In this document: piece after piece, positions 2,819 through 20,312 of the stretch
Layout of the letters: each line of letters starts with the position of its first letter
How positions within the stretch are numbered: position 1 is the first letter of the stretch
Origin: Thermoplasmata archaeon
GTDB lineage: Archaea > Thermoplasmatota > Thermoplasmata > RBG-16-68-12 > JAJISG01
Reading direction: 5' to 3'
Length of the DNA: 29,157 nucleotides
NCBI GenBank assembly: GCA_046759265.1
Contig: JBHIBW010000001.1
Span: 1 to 29,157 of the forward strand
Notes under the pieces: model-generated
Databases searched by the model: none
Seen by the model: the letters and a program-made list of their open reading frames with translations, nothing else
What the model was told of the DNA's origin: nothing
Made by a program: the position numbers and the translations under genes

Positions 2819-2991
2819 CGGGCCCGCGGGGACTTTCGCTGCGCCTCCGGACGAGGCGCAATTTCGAACCCCGGACCATCTGGTTTCAGCGCAATCGCTC
2901 CCAGGAATTGCTCCTAGAGCATTGCCTAAAAGCCAGACGCTCTTTCTAGGGACCAACCTCCGGCCGTCCAACCTAGCTGAGCTACGGGCCC
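2819..2991 (-). tRNA. tRNA-Lys(UUU) with three introns: 2970-2944 (27 nt, 20/21), 2926-2885 (42 nt, 37/38), 2862-2833 (30 nt, 59/60)
   Basis: Reverse complement gives acceptor GGGCCCG/CGGGCCC plus G73, D-stem GCTC/GAGC, anticodon stem TCTGG/CCAGA with CT-TTT-A (anticodon 2930-2928) and T-stem CGGGG/CCCCG with TTCGAA..T. Removing three hairpin-forming inserts leaves 74 nt. Confidence 0.92.
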
Positions 2992-3155
2992 AGGGGGCGG
3001 CGGTGCGCAGGGTAAATTCAAGCTCCAGGCTGGGATAAACCTTACGGTGTGTCATGTCGGGCCAAATCGCCTCGATGTGCCGGGCCTCGAGTGGCCAGGG
3101 GCGATGGGGAGCGCGGCTATTTAATGCTCCCCCCATGCGGGGAGCCAGGGAATCC

Positions 3156-3162
3156 TTTTAAG
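3156..3162 (+). promoter_or_regulatory. Probable TATA box for the zinc-ribbon / EF-1beta transcript
   Basis: TTTTAAG in a GC-rich background ~25 nt upstream of GTG 3185, consistent with a leaderless start. Confidence 0.5.
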
Positions 3163-3184
3163 CGCCCTCGGGCTAGAACGAAGC

Positions 3185-3358
3185 GTGCTGGCCTGGATCG
3201 AGACCCAATGCACGACCTGTGGTCGTCCCCTGACGGAACAGGGCTCCGTGATCTTTCGGTGCCCGCGTTGCGGCGATACGACCATCGGACGCTGTGTTCG
3301 TTGCCGGGATCAGAGCGTCACCTACGCCTGCAAGAAGTGCGGCTTCCAGGGTCCCTAG
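3185..3358 (+). CDS. Small double zinc-ribbon protein (DUF1610 / HVO_2753-like), 57 aa
   Basis: Hand translation: ..QCTTCGRPLTEQGSVIFRCPRCGDTTIGRCVRCRDQSVTYACKKCGFQGP*. Four CxxC motifs and the conserved position immediately upstream of EF-1beta. Below the ORF-track length cutoff. Confidence 0.9.
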   Translation: MLAWIETQCTTCGRPLTEQGSVIFRCPRCGDTTIGRCVRCRDQSVTYACKKCGFQGP

Positions 3359-3366
3359 GTGATCGC

Positions 3367-3627
3367 GTGGGACGCGTGGTCGTCACCTTCCGGGTCATGC
3401 CGATGGGACCCGAGGTCGAAATTCCCCCGATCCGAGAGGCCCTGCGCACGTCCTTCGGGGAAGATCTGCGGGACCTGGCCGAGAAGCCGGTGGCCTTTGG
3501 CTTGGTTGGACTGGAGGCTGTCGTCCTGCTGGAGGACGCGGAGGGACGGCTGGAAGCGGCGGAATCGACGATCCAGCGTGTAGCGGGTGTCGGAAGCGTG
3601 GAGACCCTCTCCGTGGACCTGGTCTGA
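3367..3627 (+). CDS. ef1b: Elongation factor 1-beta (aEF1B)
   Basis: GTG 3367 after AGGTGA RBS; MGRVVVTFRVMPMGPEV...EKPVAFGLVGL...VGSVETLSVDLV. This is the 3' part of track ORF 3049..3627. Confidence 0.92.
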   Translation: MGRVVVTFRVMPMGPEVEIPPIREALRTSFGEDLRDLAEKPVAFGLVGLEAVVLLEDAEGRLEAAESTIQRVAGVGSVETLSVDLV

Positions 3628-3685
3628 GCCTGTTATCCCGCCCGCGCCTCGTGGAAAAAGGATTAAATAACCGCTTCTGGGTCTT

Positions 3686-5050
3686 TTGGGCGCCGTGTTC
3701 CCCCCTGCGCTCACGCTGTTGGACGACCTGACGCAGTTCGTCCTGACGTTCTGGCCGGCATTCGTGCTGACCTTCTTCGTCGTCGTGGCCTTCCTCTACA
3801 TCTTCGCCTATCTGAACCGCTTCTTCGAGTACCTGAAGGCCCAGGAGAGCCGGTACCTGGACCGTCGGAACCTGGAACTCATCAAGCGGGTCATCATCGG
3901 GACGTGGACGTTCCTGGGGCTGGTCGTGATCCTGGTGGCGTTCGCCGCCGGCTCCCCCCTGGTCCGGGACTACACGGTGCAGGTGATCCTGCACATGCCC
4001 TCCATCCTCTTCGTGACGTTCGTCCTGATGGCGGCCGTCGTCGGCGCGGGCGCGGTGCGCCGGTACCTGACCTACCTCCGAGGCCAGCTGGAGGAGAAGC
4101 CGGAGAAGGTCATCCCGGCGCGGTCGTTCGCCGTCACGGAGGTGTTTGTCCGGTACGCGTTCTACCTCTTCGGGGTCGTCGTGGCCATCATCGGCGGACT
4201 GGCCTTGCTGCCCCCGCAGAACTCGGCCGTCGCGGACTTCATCAGTACCTACATCCTGGCGCCCCTCGCGCCGTACCTGAGCGTCGCCTTCCTCACCGTC
4301 CTCATCGCCACCTTCGTCATCATGGCCGTCGCGGTTCGGGTGGCGGACTCCTTTTTCTCGGACTTCAAGGTCCGGACGACCAAGTACAACCCGCGGGTCC
4401 TGGAACTCTTCCGGACGACCACGAAGTATGCGATCTACGCGGGCGCGGCCCTGGCCATCATCTTCCTCATCCTTTCAGTCAACTTCTCCGCCGATCAGCT
4501 GCTGCTCATCGGGCTCATCCTGGTCATCGCGGGCTTCGCCGGCGTCCTAGTCCTATACGAGGCGATTAGCGACGCCCTCGCGGGGGTGGCCCTCATCAAC
4601 GCGGATCCCTACCAGGAGGGAGACCGCATCAAGATCGGGGAGAACATGGTGGCGGACGTCTTGGAGGTCAACCTGACCCTCACCAAGGTGAAGAACCTCC
4701 GGGGGGAGGTGGTGAACCTGCCCAACAAGGAGCTCCTGGCCGAGACGATCACGAACTTCAGCCGGTCCAAGAACTACGCGATGACGGTGGACGTCACGGT
4801 GAGCTTCGACCGGCCCCACCGGAAGGTGGAGTCCCTCCTGACGGAGGCGGCGCAGCGGGTGGAGGGCATCCTGACCGATCCCGCCCCCGTCGTGTACGCG
4901 CGCGAGATCCACGGCAACGCGGTCAGCTACCAGCTCTGGGCCTACATCTCCGACCCGGCTCAGATGAAACAGATCAAGAGCGAGCTCATCTCCCGTGCCC
5001 AGGAGCTGTTCCACGAGGAAAACATCAAGCTTCTGTTTCTACAGGTTTAG
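3686..5050 (+). CDS. mscS: MscS-family mechanosensitive channel with extended N-terminal membrane region
   Basis: ALAGVALINADPYQEGDRIKIG..DVLEVNLTLTKV...VVNLPNKEL...ITNFS core and C-terminal alpha/beta domain. Start may be TTG 3686 or GTG 3695. Confidence 0.88.
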   Translation: MGAVFPPALTLLDDLTQFVLTFWPAFVLTFFVVVAFLYIFAYLNRFFEYLKAQESRYLDRRNLELIKRVIIGTWTFLGLVVILVAFAAGSPLVRDYTVQVILHMPSILFVTFVLMAAVVGAGAVRRYLTYLRGQLEEKPEKVIPARSFAVTEVFVRYAFYLFGVVVAIIGGLALLPPQNSAVADFISTYILAPLAPYLSVAFLTVLIATFVIMAVAVRVADSFFSDFKVRTTKYNPRVLELFRTTTKYAIYAGAALAIIFLILSVNFSADQLLLIGLILVIAGFAGVLVLYEAISDALAGVALINADPYQEGDRIKIGENMVADVLEVNLTLTKVKNLRGEVVNLPNKELLAETITNFSRSKNYAMTVDVTVSFDRPHRKVESLLTEAAQRVEGILTDPAPVVYAREIHGNAVSYQLWAYISDPAQMKQIKSELISRAQELFHEENIKLLFLQV

Positions 5051-7394
5051 CGGCCTCCACCGCTTTCCGGACCATAAGCACGGGGGAGGTGACGCGTTTC
5101 GCGATGCGATCTTCGAGCGGGCCAAAGGCATACTTCCGTAACACCCAGGTCGGGCTGGCCCCCATGACGAGGAGGTCCGTGTCGCGGGCAGCGCGCTCGA
5201 CCGCGCTCAGGACGGAGCCGGAGTAGACGATCTTGTGCTCGTGGGGAACCTCCGCCTCCTCGAACACCTCCATGAGTCGATGCGCGAGGGCGATGGCCTC
5301 CTCCTCCTGAGCCCGCTGGGGGACGACGGAAAGCACGGTCACCCGCGCCTCGTTCTCGCGGGCGAGCTGGGCCGTGATCCGCGCCGCGTAGTTCACGTGG
5401 GAGGCCCGGCCCGCCAGGAGGGTGATGCGCTCCAGCTTCTCCTTCATCCCCAGCGTCTTAAGGACGACCACGTCCACGTTGACCCCCTGGACCAGGAAGT
5501 CGATGTTGCTGCCTAGGATCCGTCCGCCCCGGGCCGGCCGCTCCCCGCGCCACCCGAGCACCAGGAGGTCCGCCCCCTCCTGCACCACAGCCTCCAGGAT
5601 CGTCTCGTAGACGCGGTGGGCGATCTTCACGACGACGGACACGGGGACCCCGACGTCGCGGGCCGTCTGCTCCGCAGGGCGGAGGGTGCGGATGCGGTCG
5701 TTGACGTACGAGAATCGCACGGACTTCGGCGGCATGTTGCGGGGCACCTCGATCACGTGGAGCAGGAGGAGCTCGGATTCTCGCTCCCTCGCGATCTGGG
5801 CGGCGGCGCGAACCATCGCGAGATTGCCGGGATCTCGGATGGGCAGAAGGACGCGACGGCCCTCCGGGGCCACACCCCGAGTCGGGGTGGCGATGACCTC
5901 CAGGATCTCACGCCGGATCACCCGTGGCTTCTCGATCTCGGTCCGTCCTCCGGAGAAGAAGCGGTACGCGAGGCCGATGCTCAGCCAGAGGATCGCGATG
6001 TACCAGGCGACCTGGCCCGAACTAACGCCCCCGATTTCTTGGCCTGAGAAGTTCAGCACGTACACCGCGAGGCCGATGTTCGCGACGATGCCCAGGATCG
6101 GGATGTAGGGAAAGAAGGGAACGCGAAAGCCCGGCTCGAGATCGGGCCGCTTCCTCCGGAGGGCAATCAGGCTCATGTTGGCGATGGCGAACAGCAGCAG
6201 GAACATGACCGCCGCCGACGCGGCAATCTGCTCGATGGGGAGGACCAGCGCGAAGATCGTGATGATGATCCCGCTGACGAGGACGGCGTTCGCGGGAGAC
6301 TGACGCTTGGGGTGAACCCGGCCCAGGGTCCGGGGAAGGGTCTCGTCGCGCCCCATGGCGAAGCTCACGCGAGAGGCGGAGTAGATCGTGGCGTTGAGGG
6401 CGGAGGTGGTCGCGAGAAATCCCCCCGCGAGCATGATGGCCAGACCGAGGGGGCCGGCGAGGGACTCGCCCGCCCGGATCATGGCGAGTTCGGGGTCCGC
6501 GGCCGCACCCAGACACAGATAGGCCTGTGAGGGGACGGCACACTCGATCACCCCTAGGGCCACGATGAAGGTGAGGACGTAGAAGATGACCACGACGAAG
6601 ATGGAGAGAAAGATGGCCCGGGGGATGTTTCGCTTGGGGTCCTTCACCTCCTCCCCGGACTGCGCGATGATCTCGTAGCCTTCGAAGGCGATGAATGTGA
6701 TGCCCATCGCGAGGAGGATGCCCCCTCCTCCCGCGGGCGCGAAATCGTCAAGGAACCGCTGCGGGAGCGTCGGGTCGCGCACCATGGCGCTGACGCCGAG
6801 GGCGATGAACAGGCCCAGGACGGCCATTTTCCCGATGGTCATGGCGCTCTCGGTGCGGCCCGTGGTCTGGGATCCCACGTAGTTGACCACGACGAAGAAG
6901 GTGACAATGAAGGCGGTGACGCCCTTGGTGAGCGGATTGAAGGTGAGGCCCCCTAACGAGATCTCGGGGGGGAGAATCGACGTTCCCACCCCCAGTTCCT
7001 CCAGCGCCAGGGCGAGGAAGCTGCCGAACGCGGCGGCGTAGAGGGCGCACGCGATAAGCGTGGCGGCCCAGGAGAGCCAACCGCTGATGAAGCCGACCGG
7101 GGGAGGTAGGCTCTCCCGCGCCCAGATGTAGCCCCCGCCCGCCTGCGAGTAGGCCGAGCCGAGTTCGGCGTAGGTGAAGGCGGTGAGGAGGGTCACGAGG
7201 CCGTTGACCACGAAGGCAACGAGGGCCGCGGGGCCCGCCACACGGGCCGCGGAGCCGGTCAGGACGAAGATCCCGGCACCGATCATGGCCCCGATGCCAA
7301 TCATGGTGATATCGAAGAAGCGGAGATCGCGGCTCAGCTCGATGCGAACCTCTGTGCCAGCGGGTTCGCGCGCCTGCAGGACCTCCGCTGCCAT
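5025..7394 (-). CDS. APC-superfamily amino acid permease fused to two universal stress protein (USP) domains
   Basis: MIGIGAMIGAGIF, FIAFEGYEIIAQSGEEVKDPKRNIPRAI and SRVSFAMGRD motifs; C-terminal RRVLLP..ADLLVLG and ..DLLVMGA..PVLMVR USP repeats. Confidence 0.92.
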   Translation of the reverse strand: MAAEVLQAREPAGTEVRIELSRDLRFFDITMIGIGAMIGAGIFVLTGSAARVAGPAALVAFVVNGLVTLLTAFTYAELGSAYSQAGGGYIWARESLPPPVGFISGWLSWAATLIACALYAAAFGSFLALALEELGVGTSILPPEISLGGLTFNPLTKGVTAFIVTFFVVVNYVGSQTTGRTESAMTIGKMAVLGLFIALGVSAMVRDPTLPQRFLDDFAPAGGGGILLAMGITFIAFEGYEIIAQSGEEVKDPKRNIPRAIFLSIFVVVIFYVLTFIVALGVIECAVPSQAYLCLGAAADPELAMIRAGESLAGPLGLAIMLAGGFLATTSALNATIYSASRVSFAMGRDETLPRTLGRVHPKRQSPANAVLVSGIIITIFALVLPIEQIAASAAVMFLLLFAIANMSLIALRRKRPDLEPGFRVPFFPYIPILGIVANIGLAVYVLNFSGQEIGGVSSGQVAWYIAILWLSIGLAYRFFSGGRTEIEKPRVIRREILEVIATPTRGVAPEGRRVLLPIRDPGNLAMVRAAAQIARERESELLLLHVIEVPRNMPPKSVRFSYVNDRIRTLRPAEQTARDVGVPVSVVVKIAHRVYETILEAVVQEGADLLVLGWRGERPARGGRILGSNIDFLVQGVNVDVVVLKTLGMKEKLERITLLAGRASHVNYAARITAQLARENEARVTVLSVVPQRAQEEEAIALAHRLMEVFEEAEVPHEHKIVYSGSVLSAVERAARDTDLLVMGASPTWVLRKYAFGPLEDRIAKRVTSPVLMVRKAVEAAKPVETEA

Positions 7395-7533
7395 CTGGCG
7401 CTCCCGGCGCGCGGCTAGCAGGCCCCCCGTTTAAAAGCTTTGGCCGGTGGTTCTCCGCCGTGCCCTCCTCGCACTCTCAGCGAAGATACCCAGACGGGGC
7501 AGCTTATGTAGGCCCACGGTCCTCCGGCCCCCC

Positions 7534-8424
7534 GTGCTCCTCTCCATCCTCCGCCTGCTCGTGGGGGCGCTCCTCCTCTCGTTCGCTTCCATCGCCGATT
7601 GGCGTACGAGGCGAGTCGGTGACGGCCCGTGGGCCCTCATGGCCGGCATCGGTCTGGCCCTCCTCGCGACCGAGCTTGTCCTGACGACGGAGAACCCCCT
7701 CCCCTACCTGATCCTCGTCCCCCCGGCGCTCCTCTTCCTGGACGTCCTCTGGGAGAGGGGGGGAGGGCGCTTCATCTACGGTTCGACCGTCCTCTTCTAC
7801 GGACTGAGCGGCCTTGCCGTCCTCCTTCTCGTCTTCGGTTTCTCGGGCCAGGGGCCCGACGAGCAAGCCCTGATCATTCGGGGGCTGGGCATCTTGACGG
7901 TGATCCTCCTGGGATACGCCTTCTACTATCTGGGACTCCTCAAGGGCGGGGCCGATGCAAAGGCCTTCATGGCCATCGGCGTCCTCGTTCCGGGCTATCC
8001 CACGCTCGGGCCTCTCCCGCTTCTCGCGATCGGTCCCCCTCTTCTGGCCCCCTTCGAACTCCTCTTCCCCTTCGCCTTGACGACCCTTCTCTGGGGGGCC
8101 CTCCTACTCGTCGGATTGCCCGTCGCCTTCCTCCTCCGCAACCTGGCCCGCGGGGACCGCCGTTGGCCTCAACTCCTCCTCGGCTACAAGGCGCCGGTGG
8201 ACGAGTTGCCCCGGTTCGCGTGGACCCTTCAAGAGCTGACGGAAGGCCGAATCCGCCATCACATCGTCCCGCGCACGACGACCGGGGAGGCCGACCTGGA
8301 GGCCCTGCGAGCGGCCGGCGTGGACCGCGTGTGGGTGACGCCCCAGATCCCGTTCCTCATTCCGCTCACGGTGGGGTTCGTGCTCGCGTTCCTCGTGGGG
8401 AACCCACTTTTCGCTCTCTTCTGA
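7534..8424 (+). CDS. A24-family prepilin/preflagellin peptidase (FlaK/PibD-like) with A24B C-terminal domain
   Basis: ASIADWRTRRV and GGADAKAF catalytic-aspartate motifs; C-terminal VWVTPQIPFLIPL. GTG 7534 is preferred over the track start at 7447. Confidence 0.85.
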   Translation: MLLSILRLLVGALLLSFASIADWRTRRVGDGPWALMAGIGLALLATELVLTTENPLPYLILVPPALLFLDVLWERGGGRFIYGSTVLFYGLSGLAVLLLVFGFSGQGPDEQALIIRGLGILTVILLGYAFYYLGLLKGGADAKAFMAIGVLVPGYPTLGPLPLLAIGPPLLAPFELLFPFALTTLLWGALLLVGLPVAFLLRNLARGDRRWPQLLLGYKAPVDELPRFAWTLQELTEGRIRHHIVPRTTTGEADLEALRAAGVDRVWVTPQIPFLIPLTVGFVLAFLVGNPLFALF

Positions 8425-8440
8425 GCCTGGTGGCCTTGAG

Positions 8441-8447
8441 TTTATAA
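8441..8447 (+). promoter_or_regulatory. Probable TATA box for hppA
   Basis: TTTATAA ~50 nt upstream of the ATG, with a GAGGGT RBS-like element before the start. Confidence 0.5.
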
Positions 8448-8494
8448 GGGGCTCGAACGTCCTCCGCCCGAGACTCCCTGCAAGAGGGTAAGTT

Positions 8495-10543
8495 ATGTTT
8501 CACATCGTCCTCATCGCCCTCGGGGTAGCGGGCCTCACCCTGGTCTTTGCCGCACTCCTGGTCCGGGCCATTCTGCGCCAGCCGGAGGGGTCAGACCGGA
8601 TGCGCGAGATCGCCGGATTCATCCAGGTTGGGGCCACCGTCTTCCTGCGGCGCGAGCTCCGGGCTCTGTTCATCTTCACCGTAATCCTGGTCTTGGTTCT
8701 CACTTTCGTCATCTCGCCTGGAACCGTCCACTGGGAGCTCGGGTTGGCCTTCGCCCTGGGGACTGCGGCCTCGTTCGGCGCGGGGTACCTGGGCATGTGG
8801 ATTGCCACCCGGGCCAACGTGCGCACGGCCAATCTCGTCTCGGGAAGCTTCACCCGAGCCATGCGGACGGCCTTCTTTGGCGGAGCCGTCATGGGCTCCG
8901 TCTCGGTGGCCCTGGGCCTCATCGGCATCACCAGCCTCTTCGCCGCCTTCCCGGCGGAGCCGGAGGTCTGGCTGGCCTACGCCTTCGGGGCCAGTTCCGT
9001 GGCCCTCTTCCTTCGCGTCGGCGGAGGCATCTTCACAAAGAGTGCCGACGTGGGAGCGGACCTCGTCGGCAAGGTCGAAGCGGGCATTCCCGAGGACGAC
9101 CCGCGGAACCCTGCCGTGATCGCGGACAACGTCGGGGACAACGTCGGGGACGTCGCCGGGATGGGGTCCGACCTCTACGAGTCCTACGTCTCCGCCATCG
9201 CGGCGACCATGGTCCTCGCCCTGGCCCCTGCCCTCAACCTTGGAGTGGACTACGCCCTCTTCCCCCTCCTCATGGGGGCCGTGGGTCTCCTCGCCTCGAT
9301 GGCAGGCATCCTCGCCGTACGACCTCGGCGCAGCGCCGAGGGATACGAGCAGGAGGCGAAGGCGGCGCGGTCGGCCTTGAACGTCGGCGTCTACGTGAGC
9401 ACGGGCATCATGATCGTCGTGGGCTACTTTGCCGCCCAGTTCCTCCTGGGCGCGGACGGGCTCGCCCCCTTCCTCGCCATGGTGACGGGGCTCGTGGGCG
9501 GGTTCTTGATCGGCCTCTCGACCCAGTACTTCACCTCGGAATACGGTCCGGTCCGGGGAATCGCAGGGGCGAGCGAGAGCGGAGCGGGCATCAACGTCAT
9601 GGAGGGGATGGCTGTGGGGTTCCTGAGCACCATCCCGCCCATCCTGGTCGTGGCTGGGGCGACCTTCGTGGCCTTCGCCTTTGCGGGATTGTACGGCATC
9701 GCCGTCGCGGCCGTGGGGATGCTGGTCACGCTCGCCATGCTCCTCTCGACGGACGCCTATGGACCCATCGCGGACAACGCCGCGGGCATCGCCGAGATGA
9801 GCGGCCTGGGACCGGAGGCCCGAGAACGGGCCGAAGCCCTGGACTCCGTGGGGAACACCACGGCGGCCATCGGGAAGGGTTTCGCGATCGCCTCGGCCGC
9901 CCTCGCGGCGCTGGCCTGGATTGCCACCTTCCTGGTGGTCGCGGACGTGAGCGTGGTCCCGATCCTCAGCTTCCCATTGACCTTCACGGAGGTCCGCGTC
10001 GTCATTGGCCTCCTGTCCGGGGGCTTGCTCGCCTTCGTCTTCTCGGCGCTGACCCTCCGCGCGGTCAGCTCCGGGGCCTTCGAAGTCGTTCGGGAGGTTC
10101 GACGGCAATTTCGCGACACACCGGGCCTACGGGAGGGGAAGGCAAAGCCCGACTACGGCGCCACCATCTCCCTCGTGACGCGGAAGGCCCTCCGTGCCAT
10201 GTTCGTCCCCGGGCTGCTGGTCCTCCTCGTCCCTCTGGCGGTCGGGTTTGGCCTCGGACCTGAAGCCCTGGCCGGCCTGCTCCTCGGCGCCCTCTTCGTG
10301 GGCTTCCTCCTCGCGGTCATGATGGCCAACTCCGGCGGCGCATGGGACAACGCGAAGAAGCTGATCGAGTCCGGGCTGCACGGAGGGAAGGGCGGGGAGG
10401 CCCACAAGGCCGCGGTCATCGGAGACACGGTCGGCGACCCCTTCAAAGACACCTCCGGCCCGTCGCTGAACATCCTCATCAAGCTCGTGGGGAAGGTGGC
10501 GGTCATCTTCGCCCCCTTGTTTGCACTGATCGCCGTCGTGTGA
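8495..10543 (+). CDS. hppA: Membrane-bound ion-translocating pyrophosphatase, K+-dependent, probably Na+-pumping
   Basis: GGGIFTKSADVGADLVGKVEAGIPEDDPRNPAVIADNVGDNVGDVAGMGSDLYES, GPIADNAAGIAEM, GNTTAAIGKGFAI and GDTVGDPFKDTSGPSLNILIK motifs. Confidence 0.97.
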   Translation: MFHIVLIALGVAGLTLVFAALLVRAILRQPEGSDRMREIAGFIQVGATVFLRRELRALFIFTVILVLVLTFVISPGTVHWELGLAFALGTAASFGAGYLGMWIATRANVRTANLVSGSFTRAMRTAFFGGAVMGSVSVALGLIGITSLFAAFPAEPEVWLAYAFGASSVALFLRVGGGIFTKSADVGADLVGKVEAGIPEDDPRNPAVIADNVGDNVGDVAGMGSDLYESYVSAIAATMVLALAPALNLGVDYALFPLLMGAVGLLASMAGILAVRPRRSAEGYEQEAKAARSALNVGVYVSTGIMIVVGYFAAQFLLGADGLAPFLAMVTGLVGGFLIGLSTQYFTSEYGPVRGIAGASESGAGINVMEGMAVGFLSTIPPILVVAGATFVAFAFAGLYGIAVAAVGMLVTLAMLLSTDAYGPIADNAAGIAEMSGLGPEARERAEALDSVGNTTAAIGKGFAIASAALAALAWIATFLVVADVSVVPILSFPLTFTEVRVVIGLLSGGLLAFVFSALTLRAVSSGAFEVVREVRRQFRDTPGLREGKAKPDYGATISLVTRKALRAMFVPGLLVLLVPLAVGFGLGPEALAGLLLGALFVGFLLAVMMANSGGAWDNAKKLIESGLHGGKGGEAHKAAVIGDTVGDPFKDTSGPSLNILIKLVGKVAVIFAPLFALIAVV

Positions 10544-10558
10544 GCGGATTCCACAAGG

Positions 10559-10564
10559 CTTAAG
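10559..10564 (+). promoter_or_regulatory. Possible TATA-like box for the stand-alone 5S rRNA gene
   Basis: CTTAAG ~25-30 nt upstream of the predicted 5S 5' end. Confidence 0.4.
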
Positions 10565-10592
10565 CAGCCGCGTCGGGTAACGAACGCGGAAG

Positions 10593-10813
10593 GGTGTGAC
10601 GGCCATAGCGGCGGGGATACACCCGGTCCCATCCCGAACCCGGAAGTTAAGCCCGCCTGCGTTCCCTCTGGTACTGCGGTGCGCGAGCCCGTGGGAAGGT
10701 TGGCCTCGCAAGGGTCGTGGACCCCTGGTCTAGGCGCGCTAGCCTGGTCACTTCGGTAACCGGGTGAACCGTTGCCGTTGACGGCCAACGGGTCCGCGGA
10801 ACGCTGTCAGCCC
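10593..10813 (+). rRNA. rrf: 5S rRNA with ~96-nt internal insertion (10700-10795); ends approximate
   Basis: GGCCATAGCGGCGGGGATACACCCGGTCCCATCCCGAACCCGGAAGTTAAGCC core and loop E GGTA/GAA. Helix I TGACGGC/GCTGTCA and GAAGGG/CCCTTC closes only at ~10803-10816, about 100 nt later than in a standard 5S. Confidence 0.93.
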
Positions 10814-10817
10814 TTCC

Positions 10818-11147: not shown

Positions 11148-11204
11148 CGGTCCGGCCTAGCCGGTCCTCGCATATCAAGGCGGGGGACAGCGCGCGGGTG
11201 AGCC

Positions 11205-11210
11205 TTTATA
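11205..11210 (+). promoter_or_regulatory. Probable TATA box for polC
   Basis: TTTATA ~40 nt upstream of ATG 11248. Confidence 0.45.
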
Positions 11211-11247: not shown

Positions 11248-14200
11248 ATGACTGACCTTAGCTCCAGCCAGGCAATGAGGGAGTACCTGGAAGGGCTAAA
11301 CCGGGAGGCGGAGGCGTGCTACAGCCTCGCCCGGCGCGCCCGCGCCCAGGGGATGGACCCGGAACTCAGCGTGGAAGTCCTCGCGGCGGAGGACCTGCCG
11401 AGTCGGGTGGAACGCCTCTTGGAAGCCTATGGCCTGCAAGGGGTTGGGCAACGCATCCGGGAGCTGAGCGCCCACCACGACCGAGAGGAGACGTCGCTCC
11501 TCTTGGCGCGGGAACTGGCGCAGGAGCCGGGGCGGAGCGTGGAGGAGCGCATCGAGCGCGCGATTCGGGCGGGCCTCGCCCTCCTCACCGAGGGCGTGGT
11601 AGTGGCCCCGCTGGAAGGGCTGGGGGGCGTCCAAGTCAAGCGGAACGAGGACGGGACCAACTACCTGGACGTGTTCTACGCCGGTCCGATCCGATCGGCC
11701 GGGGGGACGGCCCAGGCGCTCAGCGTGCTGATTGCCGACGTAGTCCGGCGGGAGCTCGGAATCGGGGCGTATCAGCCGACGAAAGAGGAGGTGGAGCGCC
11801 TCAAAGAGGAGATTCCGCTCTACAAGCGCCTCCAGCACCTGCAGCACACCCCCTCCGGGAACGACATCGAGCTGGTCGTCGGCCATTGCCCCGTCGGCAT
11901 CAACGGCGAAGGCACAGAGGAGGAGGAGATCAGCGGCCATCGGGACCTCCCCCGGGTGGAGACGAATCGTATCCGCGGCGGCGCCTGTCTGGTGATCGCC
12001 GAGGGACTTTGCCTCAAGGCGCCGAAGATTCTCAAACACGTCCGCAATCTCCAGATCGACGGGTGGGACTTCTTGACGCGGTACGTGGAAGAGCGAAAGA
12101 ACGGAGAGGAGGAGGCGGACAAGGAGCCCAGCTTCATTCAGAACATCATCGCGGGCCGACCGGTGCTGGCCCACCCGAGCCGGAAGGGCGGGTTTCGCCT
12201 CCGGTACGGCCGGACCCGGGCGACCGGACTCGCGGCGCTGGGCGTCCACCCTGCGACCATGCATCTCGTCGACGACTTCGTGGCCGTTGGGACCCAGATC
12301 AAGGTCGAGCGGCCGGGCAAGGCGGGAGCGGTCTCCCCCTGTGAGACCATCGAGGGGCCCCTTGTCCTCCTGAAGGATGGAAGCCTGACCGAGGTGTCAA
12401 CCCTGGAGGAGGCGCGCCGGCTTCGGCCCGACGTCGTGAGCCTGGTGGATCTGGGGGAACTCCTCGTCGCCGTTGGCGAGTTCCTGGAGAACAACCACGC
12501 CCTGCTCCCCGGCGCCTACGGTCTGGACTGGTACCGGACGGAGCTCGAGCTCCACGCCGACCCCTTACCGGAGAACTGGGAACGCCCCGCCTTCGAGGAG
12601 GCCGAGGCCTGGTCCCGCGAGTACGGCGTGCCCATGCACCCCCGTTTTAACCTCTTCTGGCACGAGCTCTCCGTCCAGGATCTGCGTCACCTGCGCGAGG
12701 AACTCGCCAGGCGGGGCCGGGGAGCGAAAGGCCGGCTCGAGATCCCGGCCGATGCGGATCTGCAGGCCCCGCTCGTGGAACTCGGGGCCCTCTTCCGCCG
12801 GGAGGGCGACACCCTCCAGGTCGGGCGCCACGGCCCGGCCCTCCTCCTCGGGTTGGGGCTCAGCATGGTGGGCCACCGGCTTCAGCCCGGAGCGGATGTG
12901 GAGGCGCAAGACCCCCTCGAGTACGTCTCGCGCTTCTCCGGAATCCCCCATCGAGCCCGCGGGCCCACGCGGATAGGGGCGCGCATGGGTCGCCCGGAGA
13001 AGGCACGGCCTCGACTGATGAAGCCCCCGCCTCACGCCCTCTTCCCCCTCGGCGTCCAGGGTGGCCCGCAGCGCCTCCTTGCCAAGGCCCTCGAGAAGGA
13101 GCGAGTCGTGGTGGAGGTCGGGCTTCGGAAGTGCGCGCAGTGCGGTCGGTCTTGGTTCCTCTCCAGGTGCCCCTGCGGCGGCCACACGGTCCCCGGGAGC
13201 CGAACGGTCGAGGAGAGTGTCCCCCTCCGGGAGGTCCACAGCCGGGCCCTCCAGGCGTTGGGCCTCACCCGGATGCCGGGGGTCAAACTCGTCCAAGGCA
13301 TGATCTCGCGGCTGAAGACCCCCGAGGCCTTGGAGAAGGGATTGTTGCGGGCGAAGCATGAGATCCACGTGTTCAAGGATGGCACCTGCCGATTCGACAT
13401 GACGAACCTCCCGCTCACCCACTTTCGACCGGGCGAGGTCGGCCTCTCCGTCCCACGGGCGAGGGAGCTGGGGTACGAAACCGACGTGCTCGGAGAGGTC
13501 CTGGCACGCGAGGACCAGCTCGTCGAGTTGCGGCCCCAGGACTTGGTGGTCTCCACCGACTGTGCGGCCTACCTGGTCCGGGTCGGGCGTTTCGTCGACG
13601 ACCTCCTCGCCCTCGCCTACGGGCTGGAGCCCCACTACGGGTTCGAGGAGACGGGGGATGTCGTCGGTCACCTCGTGATGGGTCTAGCCCCCCACACCTC
13701 GGTGGGCGTCCTCGCTCGGATTGTCGGCCTGACCCCCGCACGAGCGTGCTTCGCCCACCCCTACTTCCATGCCGCCAAGCGCCGGGACGCGGACGGGGAC
13801 GAGGACTCCGTCATCCTCCTTCTCGACGGCCTCCTCAACTTCAGTCGCGGCTTCCTGCCGGAGAAGCGCGGCGGCCTCATGGACGCGCCGCTGGTGCTGA
13901 GCACCCGGATCGATCCCAAGGAAGTGGATCGGGAGGTCCACAACCTGGAGGTCTGTGGGCGCTACCCCCTCGAGTTCTTCGAGGCCGCGGAGAAGGGGCG
14001 GCACCCTCGAGAGGTGGAGAACCTCGTCGACACGGTGGCGGCGCGCGTGGGTTCCGTCTTGCAGTTCGAGGGCTTCGGGTTCACCCATGAGGTGGACCGC
14101 CTGGACGCGGCGCCCTTGCAGACCGCCTACACGGAGGGGGGCATGCTCGCCAAGATTGAGGGGCAGTTGGCTCTGGCAAACCGGATCCGGGCCGTCAACG

Positions 14201-14541
14201 CCGAAGACGTGGTCGCCCGAATCGTGAACCACCACTTTCTCCCCGACCTGATCGGCAACCTACGGGCCTTCACCAGCCAGCGATTCCGATGCACGAAGTG
14301 CGGCGCGAAGTACCGGCGGATGCCCCTCGCCGGATCCTGCCTTCAATGCAAAGGGAAGCTGACGCTGACGGTCCACAAGAGCGGGGTCGTCAAGTATCTG
14401 GAGCTCTCGAAGCGTATCTCCGAGGAGTATCAGATTTCTCCGTACCTGCGGCAGCGCATTGGCCTCGTCGAAGAGGCCATTGCATCCATCTTCTCCGACG
14501 AGAGCCGGCAGGTCGTCCAGTTGGAGGATTTCCTCGATTGA
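11248..14541 (+). CDS. polC: DNA polymerase II (PolD) large subunit DP2, intein-free
   Basis: YAGPIRSAGGTAQALSVL, GFRLRYGRTR, IGARMGRPEKA, VFKDGTCRFD, HAAKRRDADGDED, GGLMDAPLVL and FRCTKC..C-x2-C motifs; PIP-like C-terminus QVVQLEDFL. Confidence 0.97.
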   Translation: MTDLSSSQAMREYLEGLNREAEACYSLARRARAQGMDPELSVEVLAAEDLPSRVERLLEAYGLQGVGQRIRELSAHHDREETSLLLARELAQEPGRSVEERIERAIRAGLALLTEGVVVAPLEGLGGVQVKRNEDGTNYLDVFYAGPIRSAGGTAQALSVLIADVVRRELGIGAYQPTKEEVERLKEEIPLYKRLQHLQHTPSGNDIELVVGHCPVGINGEGTEEEEISGHRDLPRVETNRIRGGACLVIAEGLCLKAPKILKHVRNLQIDGWDFLTRYVEERKNGEEEADKEPSFIQNIIAGRPVLAHPSRKGGFRLRYGRTRATGLAALGVHPATMHLVDDFVAVGTQIKVERPGKAGAVSPCETIEGPLVLLKDGSLTEVSTLEEARRLRPDVVSLVDLGELLVAVGEFLENNHALLPGAYGLDWYRTELELHADPLPENWERPAFEEAEAWSREYGVPMHPRFNLFWHELSVQDLRHLREELARRGRGAKGRLEIPADADLQAPLVELGALFRREGDTLQVGRHGPALLLGLGLSMVGHRLQPGADVEAQDPLEYVSRFSGIPHRARGPTRIGARMGRPEKARPRLMKPPPHALFPLGVQGGPQRLLAKALEKERVVVEVGLRKCAQCGRSWFLSRCPCGGHTVPGSRTVEESVPLREVHSRALQALGLTRMPGVKLVQGMISRLKTPEALEKGLLRAKHEIHVFKDGTCRFDMTNLPLTHFRPGEVGLSVPRARELGYETDVLGEVLAREDQLVELRPQDLVVSTDCAAYLVRVGRFVDDLLALAYGLEPHYGFEETGDVVGHLVMGLAPHTSVGVLARIVGLTPARACFAHPYFHAAKRRDADGDEDSVILLLDGLLNFSRGFLPEKRGGLMDAPLVLSTRIDPKEVDREVHNLEVCGRYPLEFFEAAEKGRHPREVENLVDTVAARVGSVLQFEGFGFTHEVDRLDAAPLQTAYTEGGMLAKIEGQLALANRIRAVNAEDVVARIVNHHFLPDLIGNLRAFTSQRFRCTKCGAKYRRMPLAGSCLQCKGKLTLTVHKSGVVKYLELSKRISEEYQISPYLRQRIGLVEEAIASIFSDESRQVVQLEDFLD

Positions 14542-14559
14542 CGCCGGGTCGAACGCGTG

Positions 14560-14829
14560 CTAGGCGCGGCGTGCCCGTCCGATGAGGATTCCGGAAGTCA
14601 CCAGAGCGCCGAGGCCGATTACGAGGGCGAGAGTGCCGCCGAGGAGGATGTTCACCCAGATTTCCTCGGGCAAGAAGAGGGAAACGAGGTAAGCGAGCAG
14701 ACCCACGCCGAGGAGGGCGGCCCCCGCTTTCCCCACGGCAGGCAGCCGAAGGGCGTAGTTGCAATGCGGACAGACGAGGACGCTGGGATTCTCGAGTGCG
14801 ACGCGGCAACGCGGGCAGCGGTCCGGCAT
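14560..14829 (-). CDS. Small zinc-ribbon membrane protein (CPRC..CPHC plus two TM helices)
   Basis: ATG 14829: MPDRCPRCRVALENPSVLVCPHCNYALRLP followed by two hydrophobic segments. This is the 3' part of track ORF 14560..15033. Confidence 0.75.
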   Translation of the reverse strand: MPDRCPRCRVALENPSVLVCPHCNYALRLPAVGKAGAALLGVGLLAYLVSLFLPEEIWVNILLGGTLALVIGLGALVTSGILIGRARRA

Positions 14830-14855
14830 CCCACCGAAACGAGGATTCGGGACTA

Positions 14856-15947: not shown

Positions 15948-16012
15948 GGACCCACGCCTGATGCTCCCCCAGGTGCATCAAGGTTAATATCGCCCACTCC
16001 GGATGGCGGGCT

Positions 16013-17662
16013 GTGCGACGATCGACCGCATTCGCCCTTCTCTCTTTGACCTTCCTCTCCGTCTACATCCGCCTCCTCCCCGTCACCCAGTTCCTCTACT
16101 GGGGTGCTGATTTTGGGGAGTACTTCGGCCTCACGCGGACCGTCTTTGAGGCCCAGCCCCTGCCCGACCCGTACTCCGGCTGGGGGGTCACGTACCCCGA
16201 GTTCCCGGGGCTCTTCGTGCTCAACGCCGTGGTCGGGTGGGCCGGGGTCCCGATTGAGGCGGCGGCCGTGCTGGTTGTGCCCATCCTTGCGGCTCTCGTC
16301 GTGATTCCGGTCTTCCTGCTCGCGCGCGAGGTGACGCAGCGGGATTGGGCGGCCCTCCTGGCCGCGGCGCTCGTCGCGGTATTGAGCCCCCATGCGTATC
16401 CGACTTCGCACGCCATCCCGGGCGCGCTGGGTGACCTCCTCTTCGCCACGGGGCTCCTCCTCCTCGTTCGGCTCCGCTCGGATTCCCGGATGTTGTGGCT
16501 GCTGATCCCGGTGGCCCTCACCCTCGTCCCGCTCCACCATCTGTCAAGCTATTTCCTCATCGTCGCCACGTTCTTCGTTCTCTTCTTCCGGGTTGCCGTA
16601 TGGCGCGCGTCCTGGAGCGGGATCCGGAGGGAGACCGGTTTCCTGGCCTTCCTCGTCGCGATCAATGTCATCTACTGGGTCGTCTACGCGGAGACCTTCC
16701 GTCTCTTCCTCGGGTTCGAGCGCGTCTCGCCGTTCCTGACGGCGGGGGTCGTCATCGCGCTGCCCTTCGTGCTGTATCCCCTCGCCAAGTGGCGTGCGCG
16801 GGCGAAATGGCGCTATCGGCCTCGCTGGCCCCCCACCAGACGGTCCTGGCAGGTCCTCGCCGGCGTGGCCCTTGCAGTGGCCGGACTCCTCGCCTTCACG
16901 ACCCTGGTCCAGGTGCCCGGGACGAACATTCCGACCGCCATCCCGACGCTCCTGTACGCCGCGGCCTTCCTGCCCCTCCTCCTCCTCGCGGCCCCGGGGC
17001 GGAAGCCGTTCGACTTCCTCCCCCGAGGCGCCCTCATCACGGGAGCCTTCCTGGGTCTGACACTCTCCTGGATCGTCGGAAGCGGAGTGGCCCCCGCGTT
17101 CCTGATCCCGTACCGGCATTTCGAGTACATGCTTCCGCTCATGGGAGCCTTCGTGGGAATGGGTGCGGTGCTCCTGCACCGGAGGACGGGCACGCGGATC
17201 CTCGTCCCGCTCCTCACAGGCCTGATCGTGCTCGCCGCCGCGACCGCCATCCCGCCCCGGGAGGCCCTAGCCAACCACTTCGAAGGCACCCGACCGGAGG
17301 CCCTCGTGGGCGTCGAATGGGCGGGCACCCGCATCCCCTCCCTCACTGCCACGGACCACCGGGTCTCCACCATCCTCTTCGGCTTCGCGGGTGTTCCAGG
17401 CACCTTCGATGCCGTATCGGCGCCTCTTCACGCGCCCACCTTTGAGGCGGCCCGAGGCGAGATGGTCGCAATGCCGGGCCGCGACCGAATCGACTTTGTC
17501 GTTCTCGATGCGGACCTGATTGCGGGCGTGACGCTCCTGCCGTGGGATCCCGCCCTGCCACTGTCCGCCCAGGCCCAGGCCAAGTTCCTAGGACCGCAGT
17601 ACCTCAAGCTCTACGACGACGGCTATGCGCAGGTCTACTGGGTGAATTGGGGGAACGCGTAA
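16013..17662 (+). CDS. Polytopic membrane protein, GT-C-like putative glycosyltransferase
   Basis: Roughly a dozen TM segments; first loop WGADFGEYF, YPEFPG and HHLSS motifs resemble archaeal GT-C-fold proteins; divergent from the GT4 gene. Confidence 0.6.
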   Translation: MRRSTAFALLSLTFLSVYIRLLPVTQFLYWGADFGEYFGLTRTVFEAQPLPDPYSGWGVTYPEFPGLFVLNAVVGWAGVPIEAAAVLVVPILAALVVIPVFLLAREVTQRDWAALLAAALVAVLSPHAYPTSHAIPGALGDLLFATGLLLLVRLRSDSRMLWLLIPVALTLVPLHHLSSYFLIVATFFVLFFRVAVWRASWSGIRRETGFLAFLVAINVIYWVVYAETFRLFLGFERVSPFLTAGVVIALPFVLYPLAKWRARAKWRYRPRWPPTRRSWQVLAGVALAVAGLLAFTTLVQVPGTNIPTAIPTLLYAAAFLPLLLLAAPGRKPFDFLPRGALITGAFLGLTLSWIVGSGVAPAFLIPYRHFEYMLPLMGAFVGMGAVLLHRRTGTRILVPLLTGLIVLAAATAIPPREALANHFEGTRPEALVGVEWAGTRIPSLTATDHRVSTILFGFAGVPGTFDAVSAPLHAPTFEAARGEMVAMPGRDRIDFVVLDADLIAGVTLLPWDPALPLSAQAQAKFLGPQYLKLYDDGYAQVYWVNWGNA

Positions 17663-17681
17663 TCCGGGGAAGGGGGTCGCA

Positions 17682-18062
17682 TCACTGGGGGACCGATTCG
17701 TAGCACACGTTGCAGTTGTCCAAATCCGCAATCTCCCGGTGGTAGTTACAGAATCGATCGGTGTACATGATCTGCCAACAGATGGCGTTTACCCGGCCGA
17801 CCTGAGCGGGGCGGGAGAGTCCTCCCGCGATGTCCTCGGCCAGATCGATGACGAACCCCTCAATCTCCGGGAACAACGAGAGGACGCCGTCGTCCTCCCC
17901 GCGCGCGTGGGTGTTGTAATGACTGACCGTCGCTTGGGTCACGCCAAGGTGGTCGGCGACTTCCACCTGCTTCATCCGGTACTCCCCCAAGAGGACCCGC
18001 GCGAGGTGGGCGCGAATCGTAGGGAGGACCTTGTGGACAACGAGTTCATAAGGCTGGAGCAT
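17682..18062 (-). CDS. HTH transcriptional regulator (COG2522-like) with C-terminal Cys/His cluster
   Basis: PYELVVHKVLPTIRAHLARVL...MKQVEVADHLGVTQATVSHY; C-terminal C..CxxH..CxxC. Confidence 0.85.
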   Translation of the reverse strand: MLQPYELVVHKVLPTIRAHLARVLLGEYRMKQVEVADHLGVTQATVSHYNTHARGEDDGVLSLFPEIEGFVIDLAEDIAGGLSRPAQVGRVNAICWQIMYTDRFCNYHREIADLDNCNVCYESVPQ

Positions 18063-18149
18063 CGGACCCCCAGACACGCGGTGACAAACGGTTCGTCAAT
18101 ATTTAATCGTATGTCGCCAGGCCAGATGGACCCTCAGCCGAGGGCGCCG

Positions 18150-18728
18150 CTAGCCCGGAAGCAGCCACGAACGGAAGCGACACACAGCGTCACCCCGGGC
18201 GACACAATCCGTTTCGGAGATTCGGAGGTCAAGCCCCAGGCTTCCCTTAGCCCATCCCGCGGCGAGGCCCTCGAAGAAGGCACACGCAGGAGCCTGCCCC
18301 TCGTTCTCGCGGCCCGTGATGCCCAAGACGGTTCCCAGGTCGAAGGTCCACTCCAGCCGGTCTCGCTGATCGTCGTACACGAGTTCGCTGGTTCCGAATC
18401 CCGTCCCTGCGAGGATGGGGGGCATGGCCAGAAGCGTCTCGGCTTTGGGCACCTTCGGATCCCGAGCCCGATCCAGGGCTTCGGCACTTTCGAGCCCTGC
18501 TTGGTAGCCAATCCGCCGACACAGATCTCGCGCGGGCGGATGGAGGGTCATGTCCTCCAACACCTCCATGAGCTCGAGGGCAAGGGGCGACCAGACCACC
18601 GCTGGTGACCGGGATCCTTCCCCATCCGTGGGGGATCGTTCCGGCTCCCGGCGGAACCCCTTGGCGAGAAGCATGTCGAAGTAATCCTCGACCGATTCGA
18701 CGGTCAAGTTGACGCGGTGGACTGTCAT
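18150..18728 (-). CDS. V4R-domain protein
   Basis: CAFFEGLAAGW...ETDCVARGDAVCRF three-Cys V4R signature. Confidence 0.88.
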   Translation of the reverse strand: MTVHRVNLTVESVEDYFDMLLAKGFRREPERSPTDGEGSRSPAVVWSPLALELMEVLEDMTLHPPARDLCRRIGYQAGLESAEALDRARDPKVPKAETLLAMPPILAGTGFGTSELVYDDQRDRLEWTFDLGTVLGITGRENEGQAPACAFFEGLAAGWAKGSLGLDLRISETDCVARGDAVCRFRSWLLPG

Positions 18729-18845
18729 CCAAGATGCCCTCAGGACGATTCATGCCGGGGGTCTCCGTATAAGGATTTCCTGCCCAAAATCGAACGTGCA
18801 AACGAGGCGACGTCCTGGACTGCCGAGGTGAATTGGGGACTCCCC

Positions 18846-19259
18846 TCAGAAGACCTTCATCAGGTTTGAGACCGTGGCGAGTGCGTCCCGACCGTCCCTC
18901 TGCGTCCGACTCCCGAAGGCGGCCGCCGCCAGGTCAGACCCATTTCGGTCCTCGAATCCGTTCAGGATCTGCCGCATTCCTTGCCGAAGGGCCTCGTCCT
19001 CATGACCCACGATGATGAGGATGAGCATGCAGAACGTGCCCTTCTGGGCGAGGATCCGGACGGGGCCGTGATCCAAGGCCTTGAAGGGCTCACGTCGAGA
19101 ACTCGGAGAGGTTTGCTCGACAAAGCCCAGAATCGACTCCATCGCGCCGGAGAGGCGATCTCCGTTCTCCACGAGGGGGCTGCCGAGGTTGTGGGAGGCA
19201 ATCACCTGGCCTCCGTACCTCATTAAGCAGCCGTAGAGAATAGCCGCACCTTGGGGCAT
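18846..19259 (-). CDS. Stand-alone longin/roadblock-like domain protein
   Basis: Pattern of beta strands (GQVIASH), helix (LSGAMESILGFV), beta hairpin (ALDHGPVRILAQKGTFCMLILIIVG) and helix (EALRQGMRQILNGFEDR) resembles archaeal longin-like domains. Start uncertain. Confidence 0.55.
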   Translation of the reverse strand: MPQGAAILYGCLMRYGGQVIASHNLGSPLVENGDRLSGAMESILGFVEQTSPSSRREPFKALDHGPVRILAQKGTFCMLILIIVGHEDEALRQGMRQILNGFEDRNGSDLAAAAFGSRTQRDGRDALATVSNLMKVF

Positions 19260-19331
19260 CTCAATAAAATCTAGAAAACATGTAATATAAAACAATGCAT
19301 CCCAATATCGTGTGGTGAAGCGACGGGAGTT

Positions 19332-20111
19332 CTAGCCGCTTACCTGCAGGCGGGCTGCGCCCTTGGCCTCTCCGTGGTGCGCCCACACGCGGTAGTCTCC
19401 ACTGGGTGCGTCACGGGGAATCTGCAGCTCGACCTCGAACCGGCCGTTCATCGCGGTGGTCGTCTCCCCTTGGGCCCACTCGGTGCCCTGGGAGTCGAGA
19501 ACGGTCAACGCGATGTCCCTGGCGCCCGCATCCTTCAGCATGAGTTCGCCCGCGATGCGAACCGAGTCTCCAGAAGCGACGGCGGACGGAGTGGACGCCA
19601 CGGCCACCACGGTCTCCCGAACGATCCTCTCGCCGGCGTGTCGGGCTCCCTTGTGCAGGACCACGGGGCCCTGGGAGCCGTCCACCGAGAACGCGACGAC
19701 CTCCCCGACGAAGGCCGTGTGGTCCCCCATCGGGACTTGCTGTACGACCTGGCACTCGGCGTTCAGCGTGGCACCGCGGAGGAGGGGGGCCGCGATCTTC
19801 TGGGCGGGGTATGTGTCAAACAAATCGCTGGAGAGTTTGTCCGTGTCCCGTCCGGTGAAGTGGCCCGCGAAGGCCATGGCGTTGACCAAGTCCTCGGGCA
19901 CCAGGTTGACTCCGAACTCGTTGGTCTCGACGATCGCATCGTACGTCGCCTTCCCCGGGCGGATGTGGACGCAGATGAGGAAGGGATCGTAGGAGACGTG
20001 AAAGGTCCATTCCGCCGCCATGACGTTATCCCCCTTGGATCCGCGGGTGGTCACGAGAGACACACCGGTCGTGAACTGCCGGTAGGCCTCGCGGACGTCG
20101 GCCGATGCCAT
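19332..20111 (-). CDS. Flavin reductase family protein with C-terminal beta-sandwich extension
   Basis: FTTGVSLVTT..NVMAAEW..SYDP, FGVNLV and ECQVVQQVPMGDHTAFVGEV motifs, plus ~95 extra beta-rich residues. Confidence 0.88.
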   Translation of the reverse strand: MASADVREAYRQFTTGVSLVTTRGSKGDNVMAAEWTFHVSYDPFLICVHIRPGKATYDAIVETNEFGVNLVPEDLVNAMAFAGHFTGRDTDKLSSDLFDTYPAQKIAAPLLRGATLNAECQVVQQVPMGDHTAFVGEVVAFSVDGSQGPVVLHKGARHAGERIVRETVVAVASTPSAVASGDSVRIAGELMLKDAGARDIALTVLDSQGTEWAQGETTTAMNGRFEVELQIPRDAPSGDYRVWAHHGEAKGAARLQVSG

Positions 20112-20226
20112 GGTTGAAGCACGGGGGCATCAGTGAAAAACGTGATGCGTTGCTTCTTCGGCCGTCGGTGCCAGCGGCGTCAAGCCCGACAATTACTTCT
20201 ACGCCCCCGCCTCCTTTCGACCCCGC

Positions 20227-20312
20227 GCCGCCGTAGCTCAGCCGGCGAGAGCGACGGTCTTGTAACCCCGCAAGAGAACCGTAGGTCAAGGGTTCGAATC
20301 CCTTCGGCGGCT
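20227..20312 (+). tRNA. tRNA-Thr(UGU) with 12-nt intron at 37/38 (20265-20276)
   Basis: GCCGCCG/CGGCGGC acceptor plus U73, GCTC/GAGC D-stem, ACGGT/ACCGT anticodon stem with CT-TGT-A, AAGGG-TTCGAAT-CCCTT T-arm; 74 nt after splicing. Confidence 0.93.

Follow-up and report, generated by a model that had tools for sequence, protein, structure and literature searches.

Large expansions of archaeal 5S rRNA were previously thought to be confined to a few haloarchaeal genera. The 5S rRNA of Halococcus carries an insert of 108 nt between residues 104 and 105, which is attached through a four-way junction and is retained, as a flexible element, in the ribosome (PMC7530397); Halobacteriales was the sole archaeal order named in a 2021 survey of expanded 5S rRNAs (PMC7812874). 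Among archaeal tRNA splicing endonucleases (EndA), only loop-bearing enzymes are held to process relaxed, non-canonical introns (PMC5829648), and archaeal group I introns are known at the large-subunit (LSU) rRNA sites LSU/1931 and LSU/1923 (Nawrocki, Jones and Eddy 2018, PMC6125680). Here we describe the interrupted genes for tRNA-Lys(UUU), tRNA-Thr(UGU) and 5S rRNA on a 29,157-nt stretch of DNA (hereafter, the window, meaning the whole stretch that was analysed) from a Thermoplasmata archaeon (GTDB lineage Thermoplasmatota; Thermoplasmata; RBG-16-68-12; JAJISG01; assembly GCA_046759265.1, contig JBHIBW010000001.1). The window is contig C1 of a metagenome-assembled genome (MAG) of 1.76 Mb in 280 contigs.

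All three stable-RNA genes of the window contain additional sequence (Table 1). The initial annotation of the window had reported three introns in tRNA-Lys, one in tRNA-Thr and an insert of approximately 96 nt in the 5S gene; we recovered all of these, the last with a size of about 98 nt, and we likewise found no intein domains in the PolD large subunit DP2 (11248-14541) or in the visible part of RpoB, which that annotation had described as intein-free. The interruptions are real, and they are likely to represent separate, old features of the lineage rather than the products of one insert-generating process. The three genes probably sample two phenomena, namely EndA-spliced tRNA introns and a 5S expansion segment whose retention is probable, to which the relatives of this archaeon add a third, group I introns in 23S rRNA. 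This account is built on gene structures, covariation, distribution and the presence of the processing enzymes.

The 5S insert departs from helix V on its 3' strand, directly beneath loop E. An 8-bp helix closes the long arm, and the insert thereby makes up a four-way junction in which both halves of helix V take part. The structure was completed by hand on an alignment of 60 distinct sequences and evaluated against slid-partner controls and 500 shuffles. Altogether, 96.9% of the alignment cells are paired, compared with 28-45% in the slid controls, and 28 pairs, some of them in helix I, in helix V and in the helices of the insert, have changed on both sides. The observed value was reached in none of the 500 shuffles on four of five measures and in 20 of them on the fifth. 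The core of the 5S rRNA is intact: pairing in helices 1-6 amounts to 96-100%, and helices I, II, III and IV have undergone compensatory changes. Insert helices 7-11 comprise 16 pairs with changes on both sides, helices 7, 8, 10 and 11 being rich in compensatory changes. Two single-stranded motifs within the insert, CYAGGYRCG and UAACGGYC, are conserved across orders. Folded alone, the insert reaches -48.8 kcal/mol (z = -2.8), and no Rfam family matches it. Upstream of the gene lies a TATA-like box, and in relatives helix I is followed by a T-rich tract. The gene that precedes the 5S gene in the window encodes an H+-pyrophosphatase (8495-10543).

At its gathering threshold, Rfam calls a complete 5S gene of 117 nt at 10595-10711. 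This call is a local-alignment artefact, in which the first hairpin of the insert is mistaken for the 3' side of helix I. We rejected the 3' end and the helix I closure that it implies (GCC-UCGCA; GCCUCGCA), since the stretch is a length-variable, covarying hairpin in the 60 distinct related sequences. The true 3' strands are GGAAC (10798-10802) for helix V and GCUGUCAGCC (from 10803) for helix I, and the leader-proximal extension of helix I covaries (GGAAGGG/CCCUUCC versus CAGUGG/CCACUG).

The junctions of the 5S insert were examined for a bulge-helix-bulge (BHB) motif in 15 sampled relatives, 13 of them scorable, and none recurs in a consistent register; the best candidates in these 13 vary in position and mostly have two or three of the four central pairs. 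The supposition that the insert is a hairpin intron of the EndA type fails on this point and on the conservation of its sequence and structure over at least 11 families.

A BLAST search with the 5S region of the window gave a match in 40 of 41 relatives, and the extension was seen in all seven inspected families of the order, where the insert measures 99-116 nt. Within the class, at least 11 families have it (f1-f7, f10, f14, f21 and f28), and at least 12 others, with one or two genomes inspected in each, have a normal 5S gene of approximately 120 nt (f8, f9, f11, f12, f15, f16, f17, f20, f26, f27, f30 and f31). One genome among the class samples, G129, is unpublished; it is counted in the class-level 5S and tRNA tallies and is used for no further claim. 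A motif scan of species-representative genomes yielded 74 stretches, about 63 of them Thermoplasmata 5S genes and 11 chance matches in bacteria. The records that share the motif include entries named 'Thermoplasmata archaeon' and 'Methanomassiliicoccales archaeon', RBG_16_67_27 and RBG_19FT_COMBO_69_17 (Rifle), EA_2 to EA_28 (Angelo soil) and the closed genome CP070767.1. Expanded 5S genes were also found in at least 120 metagenome contigs; a scan of metagenomes for short, transcript-like records of expanded 5S rRNA returned long genomic contigs alone. Both 5S copies of the MAG are expanded, with no short copy in it, and the closed genomes have expanded copies only (two in G036, one each in G077 and G168). 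Judging from its distribution, the insert predates the order, and it is most likely an expansion segment that would remain in the ribosome. Expanded 5S rRNA in Thermoplasmata returned no report in a full-text literature search.

The second expanded copy of the MAG (C198:1858-2111, minus strand) lies on a 2.3-kb contig and is 97% identical over the 261-nt BLAST query. Slightly differing duplicates of the Val-CAC, Val-UAC and Thr-CGU tRNAs suggest that two strains are present in the bin. The tRNA-Lys(UUU) and 5S genes are located 6-11 kb apart on one contig in several families (window 2819-10815; G003:C57, G001:C34, G030:C68 and G023:C25), a case of conserved synteny.

The unspliced tRNA-Lys(UUU) gene was called neither by ARAGORN nor by Rfam, the latter tried on the region up to E<=10. 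It was recovered with a script that enumerates BHB motifs and hands the spliced candidates to ARAGORN. Intron 1, whose position is conserved in the order, has a central helix CUAG/CUAG of 4 bp and an inner helix of 4 bp, with no directly adjacent outer helix. Intron 2 has outer and inner helices of 5 bp each; two of the four pairs of its central helix form in this genus, and the same helix is a perfect CUUU/AAAG in other families. In intron 3, H has 4 bp, h 5 bp and h' at least 5 bp. Forty of the 41 relatives have a gene with inserts at these three positions. It was read in seven of seven families sampled from the order: the exons do not differ, and the introns diverge in length and sequence, keeping the BHB-forming segments. 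With this order-wide distribution the three introns are therefore old and no ongoing gains; comparison of the sequences places them in the ancestor of the order or earlier. The intron of tRNA-Thr(UGU) forms a BHB with a perfect central helix CUUG/CAAG, five outer pairs and one inner pair, and bulges UA|A and AG|A. The 3' end of this tRNA gene (20299-20312) recurs as an exact direct repeat of 14 bp at 22274-22287, 1.96 kb downstream, with a chance expectation of 0; the repeat is compatible with a decayed element that had integrated at the tRNA gene.

The tRNA set of this family is unusually rich in introns. Our census of the genome combined Infernal (31 matches), ARAGORN and a pipeline that seeds on the T-arm and acceptor stem and then searches for BHB motifs, with doubtful calls checked by eye. 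It identified 37 tRNA genes, 15 uninterrupted and 22 (59%) interrupted by 29 introns in all, with a single intron in sixteen genes, two introns in five (Val-UAC on C28 and on C80, Lys-CUU on C16, Leu-UAA on C133 and Arg-CCG on C149) and three in Lys-UUU. Some duplicate tRNAs in the census reflect the mixture of strains. Eleven introns are non-canonical, four of them in D-loops and seven in T-loops at positions 58-60. A genome-wide search that started from BHB motifs was dropped, being too noisy at 65% GC (about 130 candidates in 200 nt), and the T-arm and acceptor-stem seeds were used instead. Raising the E-value limit of Infernal gained nothing useful, and the long-intron calls of ARAGORN (option -i) were all false on inspection except for tRNA-Trp on C249.

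The BHB script was applied to 26 of the 29 introns, all but those of Met-CAU (C89), Ser-GGA (C79) and Trp-CCA (C249). In each of the 26 it scored a 4-nt central helix in register with 3-nt bulges, with all four pairs in 22 cases, three in three cases and two in one. The T-loop introns are of the strict hBHBh' form, save three with three of four central pairs, and three D-loop introns (in Lys-UUU, Val-UAC and Arg-CCG) as well as several short introns at 37/38 are relaxed. After splicing in silico, all tRNAs were called by ARAGORN with the expected anticodon; the products for Leu and Ser measure 85-86 nt and the others 72-76 nt. By their motifs, the tRNA inserts are archaeal BHB introns, which would be excised by EndA in vivo. 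The intron of tRNA-Trp(CCA) (C249:699-864, minus strand) is 92 nt long and contains the box C/D-like motifs UGAUGA and CUGA. We take it to resemble the intron-encoded methylation guide of euryarchaeal tRNA-Trp.

As a rough guide, a class-wide Infernal count over the best 37 scored candidates per genome is low in the family of the window (24-30) and also in f17 and f15; the single genomes inspected in the latter two have no 5S insert, and we saw no sign there that hidden tRNAs and the 5S insert are coupled.

The initial annotation had suggested that introns may be transposed via EndA and RtcB and had proposed a search for identical introns in different tRNAs. Both enzymes are encoded. When introns of the genome were compared with each other and with shuffled introns, no identical or significantly similar introns occurred in different tRNAs, and the most similar pair, the T-loop introns of Leu-UAA and Arg-CCG, agrees at 17 of 21 positions, within a shuffled null that extends to 0.83. 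The introns so compared provide no evidence of recent transposition.

EndA is present as a sole copy (C18:9382-10488, plus strand; L115:1219-2325), a single open reading frame (ORF) in which PF02778 and PF01974 each occur twice, making up two complete units of N- plus C-domain. A non-catalytic unit and, after it, a catalytic one are thus naturally fused; the first unit, read by eye from the sequence, has no catalytic Tyr and His. Exactly this single fused gene was found in 27 of 30 genomes of the order. The best solved relative is 5X89, an engineered alpha-beta fusion of M. kandleri EndA, with E = 1.4e-40 across both units. Aligned to the alpha subunit of A. pernix (3P1Z_B), the protein has a gap of 9 residues exactly at the APE loop KPRGADFEGP, and to the loop-less M. 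kandleri enzyme it aligns gap-free; it thus has no specific loop (CSL/L1). T-loop introns of the strict hBHBh' form should be cleavable at any position. The RtcB ligase is encoded on C49.

Three other stable RNAs are intact. RNase P RNA (C87:710-984, 275 nt) and signal recognition particle (SRP) RNA (C28:7792-8103, 312 nt) match their full models with no insert, and the 16S rRNA of a congener (G003) is normal and uninterrupted at 1473 nt. The 23S rRNA is 3196 nt long in G003, 3645 nt in G008, 3449 nt in G023 and 3185 nt in G077, compared with 2914-2945 nt in three lineages with no 5S insert. All of the excess lies at one site, UAAGGU|AGCG, which is LSU/1931-like. The inserts are group I introns: RF00028, with a gathering score of 50, matches them at 68.7, 61.4, 60.9 and 60.6 bits in G003, G077 and G023 (two matches). 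In G008 (L119) a homologous insert is present at the same site, unscored by Rfam, with an extra segment of approximately 450 nt that reads like an ORF and possibly encodes a homing endonuclease.

Table 1 Features of the interrupted RNA genes in the window and of the 23S introns in relatives
Feature	Location	Strand	Description
tRNA-Lys(UUU) gene	2819..2991	-	173 nt unspliced, 74 nt spliced; spliced form called as tRNA-Lys(ttt) by ARAGORN
tRNA-Lys intron 1	2944..2970	-	27 nt, D-loop (about 20/21), relaxed HBh'
tRNA-Lys intron 2	2885..2926	-	42 nt, canonical 37/38
tRNA-Lys intron 3	2833..2862	-	30 nt, T-loop 59/60, strict hBHBh'
Expanded 5S rRNA gene	10590..10815	+	about 226 nt, approximate ends; Rfam core match 84.5 bits
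5S insert	10700..10797	+	about 98 nt; small hairpin and long branched arm
tRNA-Thr(UGU) gene	20227..20312	+	called by ARAGORN and Rfam
tRNA-Thr intron	20265..20276	+	12 nt, canonical 37/38, BHB, sequence ACCCCGCAAGAG
23S group I intron (G003)	L118:2141-2384		RF00028
23S group I introns (G023), adjacent pair	L295:1069-1297 and 1336-1544		RF00028
23S group I intron (G077)	L294:1065-1267		RF00028

Three interrupted RNA genes out of three in one window are not surprising for this genome, because 59% of its found tRNA genes are interrupted and both 5S copies have the insert. According to the mechanism that we propose, the BHB introns of tRNAs would be cut by the sole, fused two-unit EndA and sealed by RtcB; the 5S insert would be a structured expansion segment that, attached to helix V on the 3' side, leaves the core intact and stays in the ribosome as that of Halococcus does; and the 23S rRNAs of relatives with the 5S insert contain group I introns, which would be self-splicing, at one LSU/1931-like site. 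The initial annotation had instead proposed a genome-wide tendency to gain hairpin inserts in RNA genes, to be refuted if most of the remaining RNA genes proved uninterrupted. For tRNAs much of this stands and that refuting condition does not hold: interrupted genes, 22 of 37, are the majority, and their introns are multiple and often in non-canonical positions. It does not extend to RNase P RNA, SRP RNA and the 16S rRNA of the congener, and the notion of ongoing gain is at odds with the age of the tRNA-Lys introns and the 5S insert, which predate the order. An old, lineage-specific load of unrelated kinds of insert describes the data better than a general tendency to gain them, because recent spread is seen in none of these kinds and because RNase P, SRP and 16S RNAs are intact.

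Several alternatives have to be weighed against these separate origins. One ongoing process, reverse-splicing transposition by EndA and RtcB, might scatter hairpin inserts into all stable-RNA genes including the 5S. The frequency of tRNA introns and their several non-canonical sites, the seven T-loop introns of similar build at the one 58-60 site and the presence of both enzymes would all fit; we nevertheless hold it to be very unlikely, since the 5S insert, unlike the tRNA introns, lacks a conserved BHB and keeps its sequence from family to family, inserts are absent from RNase P, SRP and 16S RNAs, the best identity between introns of different tRNAs (17/21) falls inside the shuffled null, fixation throughout the order is seen for the tRNA-Lys introns as for the 5S insert, and the 23S inserts are group I introns. 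For the 5S gene, a single process is largely refuted. The 5S insert could otherwise be removed after transcription, by nuclease excision and religation or by processing into two pieces, leaving a ribosomal 5S rRNA that is normal-sized or fragmented. As a self-contained module closed by an 8-bp helix it lends itself to this, and its removal would restore a normal 5S; against that stand the lack of a BHB in a consistent register in the 15 sampled relatives, the conservation of CYAGGYRCG and UAACGGYC across orders, unexpected for a discarded intron when those of tRNA-Lys diverge freely, and the precedent of Halococcus, where an insert at nearly the same site stays in the ribosome (PMC7530397), so that we regard excision as unlikely. 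Selection against integrating elements, with T- and D-loop introns persisting since they break the attachment sequences of integrases, takes up the disruption of viral att sites raised in the initial annotation and is a speculative idea to which we give a small chance. It draws on tRNA-Thr, which has no T-loop intron and whose last 14 bases are repeated downstream, as fits an old integration at the tRNA 3' end, and on the seven tRNAs with introns at 58-60, within the usual attachment core; it leaves the 5S insert and the anticodon-loop introns unexplained, and tRNA-Thr is its single example. Misassembly, pseudogenes or contaminant contigs might be suspected in a MAG that is fragmented into 280 contigs, has 6.6% contamination and contains duplicated tRNAs. 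The same structures occur, however, in about 60 independent assemblies, closed genomes among them, and in at least 120 metagenome contigs, and the compensatory changes show that selection keeps them; an artefact has a negligible probability and is already refuted by this conservation.

Some observations weigh against separate, old features as we have drawn them. The MAG is 86% complete and 6.6% contaminated and has neither 16S nor 23S rRNA genes, so that the statements on these rRNAs rest on relatives. About nine expected isoacceptors are missing from the census, which makes its counts a lower bound, and other gene architectures could be missed. The T-loop introns have a look in common, GGGCC...GGCC...GAAA(G/U), a pattern that is compatible with a common origin and does not rise above the shuffled null. 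A group I intron is present in four of four checked lineages with the 5S insert and in none of three without it; this co-occurrence could hint at a shared history of the two. Finally, that the 5S insert is retained and that the non-canonical tRNA introns are spliced is in both cases inferred. There is about an even chance, in our estimation, that two statements hold jointly: that the 5S insert of approximately 100 nt is a retained, functional rRNA domain fixed in a deep Thermoplasmata clade of at least 11 families, and that a loop-less, fused EndA processes relaxed D-loop introns, contradicting the loop-only rule.

The unusual gene structures also affect annotation. Standard tools misplace the 3' end of the 5S gene, and about one in four tRNA genes escapes ARAGORN or Rfam; therefore, tRNA counts and quality scores of MAGs are biased for this lineage, which is widespread in soil and groundwater.

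Compared with described systems, the 23S inserts are like the archaeal IB4-type group I introns at LSU/1931 and LSU/1923 (PMC6125680) in their above-threshold match to Intron_gpI at a known 23S site, in the ORF inserted into one copy and in the adjacent pair of introns in one genome; the introns reported here are known from the relatives G003, G008, G023 and G077. The tRNA genes resemble those of Thermoproteales and other archaea with loop-bearing EndA (PMC5829648, PMC4090602) in having BHB and relaxed HBh' introns in D-, anticodon- and T-loops, with up to three introns per gene, to which standard tRNA finders are blind. They differ in their host, a member of Thermoplasmata, in the sole EndA, a fused two-unit enzyme without the Crenarchaea-specific loop, and in that no intron families shared between tRNAs are evident. 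The lineage resembles M. kandleri, with its loop-less (alpha-beta)2 EndA (PDB 5X89) and a D-loop HBh' intron in pre-tRNA-Glu (PMC5829648): in both organisms a loop-less enzyme occurs alongside relaxed D-loop introns. The units are fused by nature here and by engineering there, the intron load is far above the few introns reported from M. kandleri, and the enzyme described here is predicted from its sequence. The combination of intron-rich tRNAs and relaxed D-loop introns with a loop-less EndA offers a direct test of the model that ties EndA architecture to the disruption of tRNA genes.

The nearest analogue of the 5S rRNA is the Halococcus morrhuae type (PMC7530397; PMC7812874). Both have an insert of approximately 100 nt in the 3' strand of helix V by loop E, a four-way junction and intact core helices, and in both the expanded form is the only 5S type of the genome and a lineage-wide trait; this likeness concerns position and architecture as described in the literature, and the exact insertion nucleotide may be a few positions off. 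Unlike the Halococcus type, the expansion occurs here in non-halophilic, uncultured Thermoplasmata and spans at least 11 families in several orders, as against a few haloarchaeal genera. If the domain is indeed retained, no known prokaryotic clade with expanded 5S rRNA would be larger or older. Next to Halococcus, these families offer a second and much broader natural system for studying the role of such a domain on the central protuberance.

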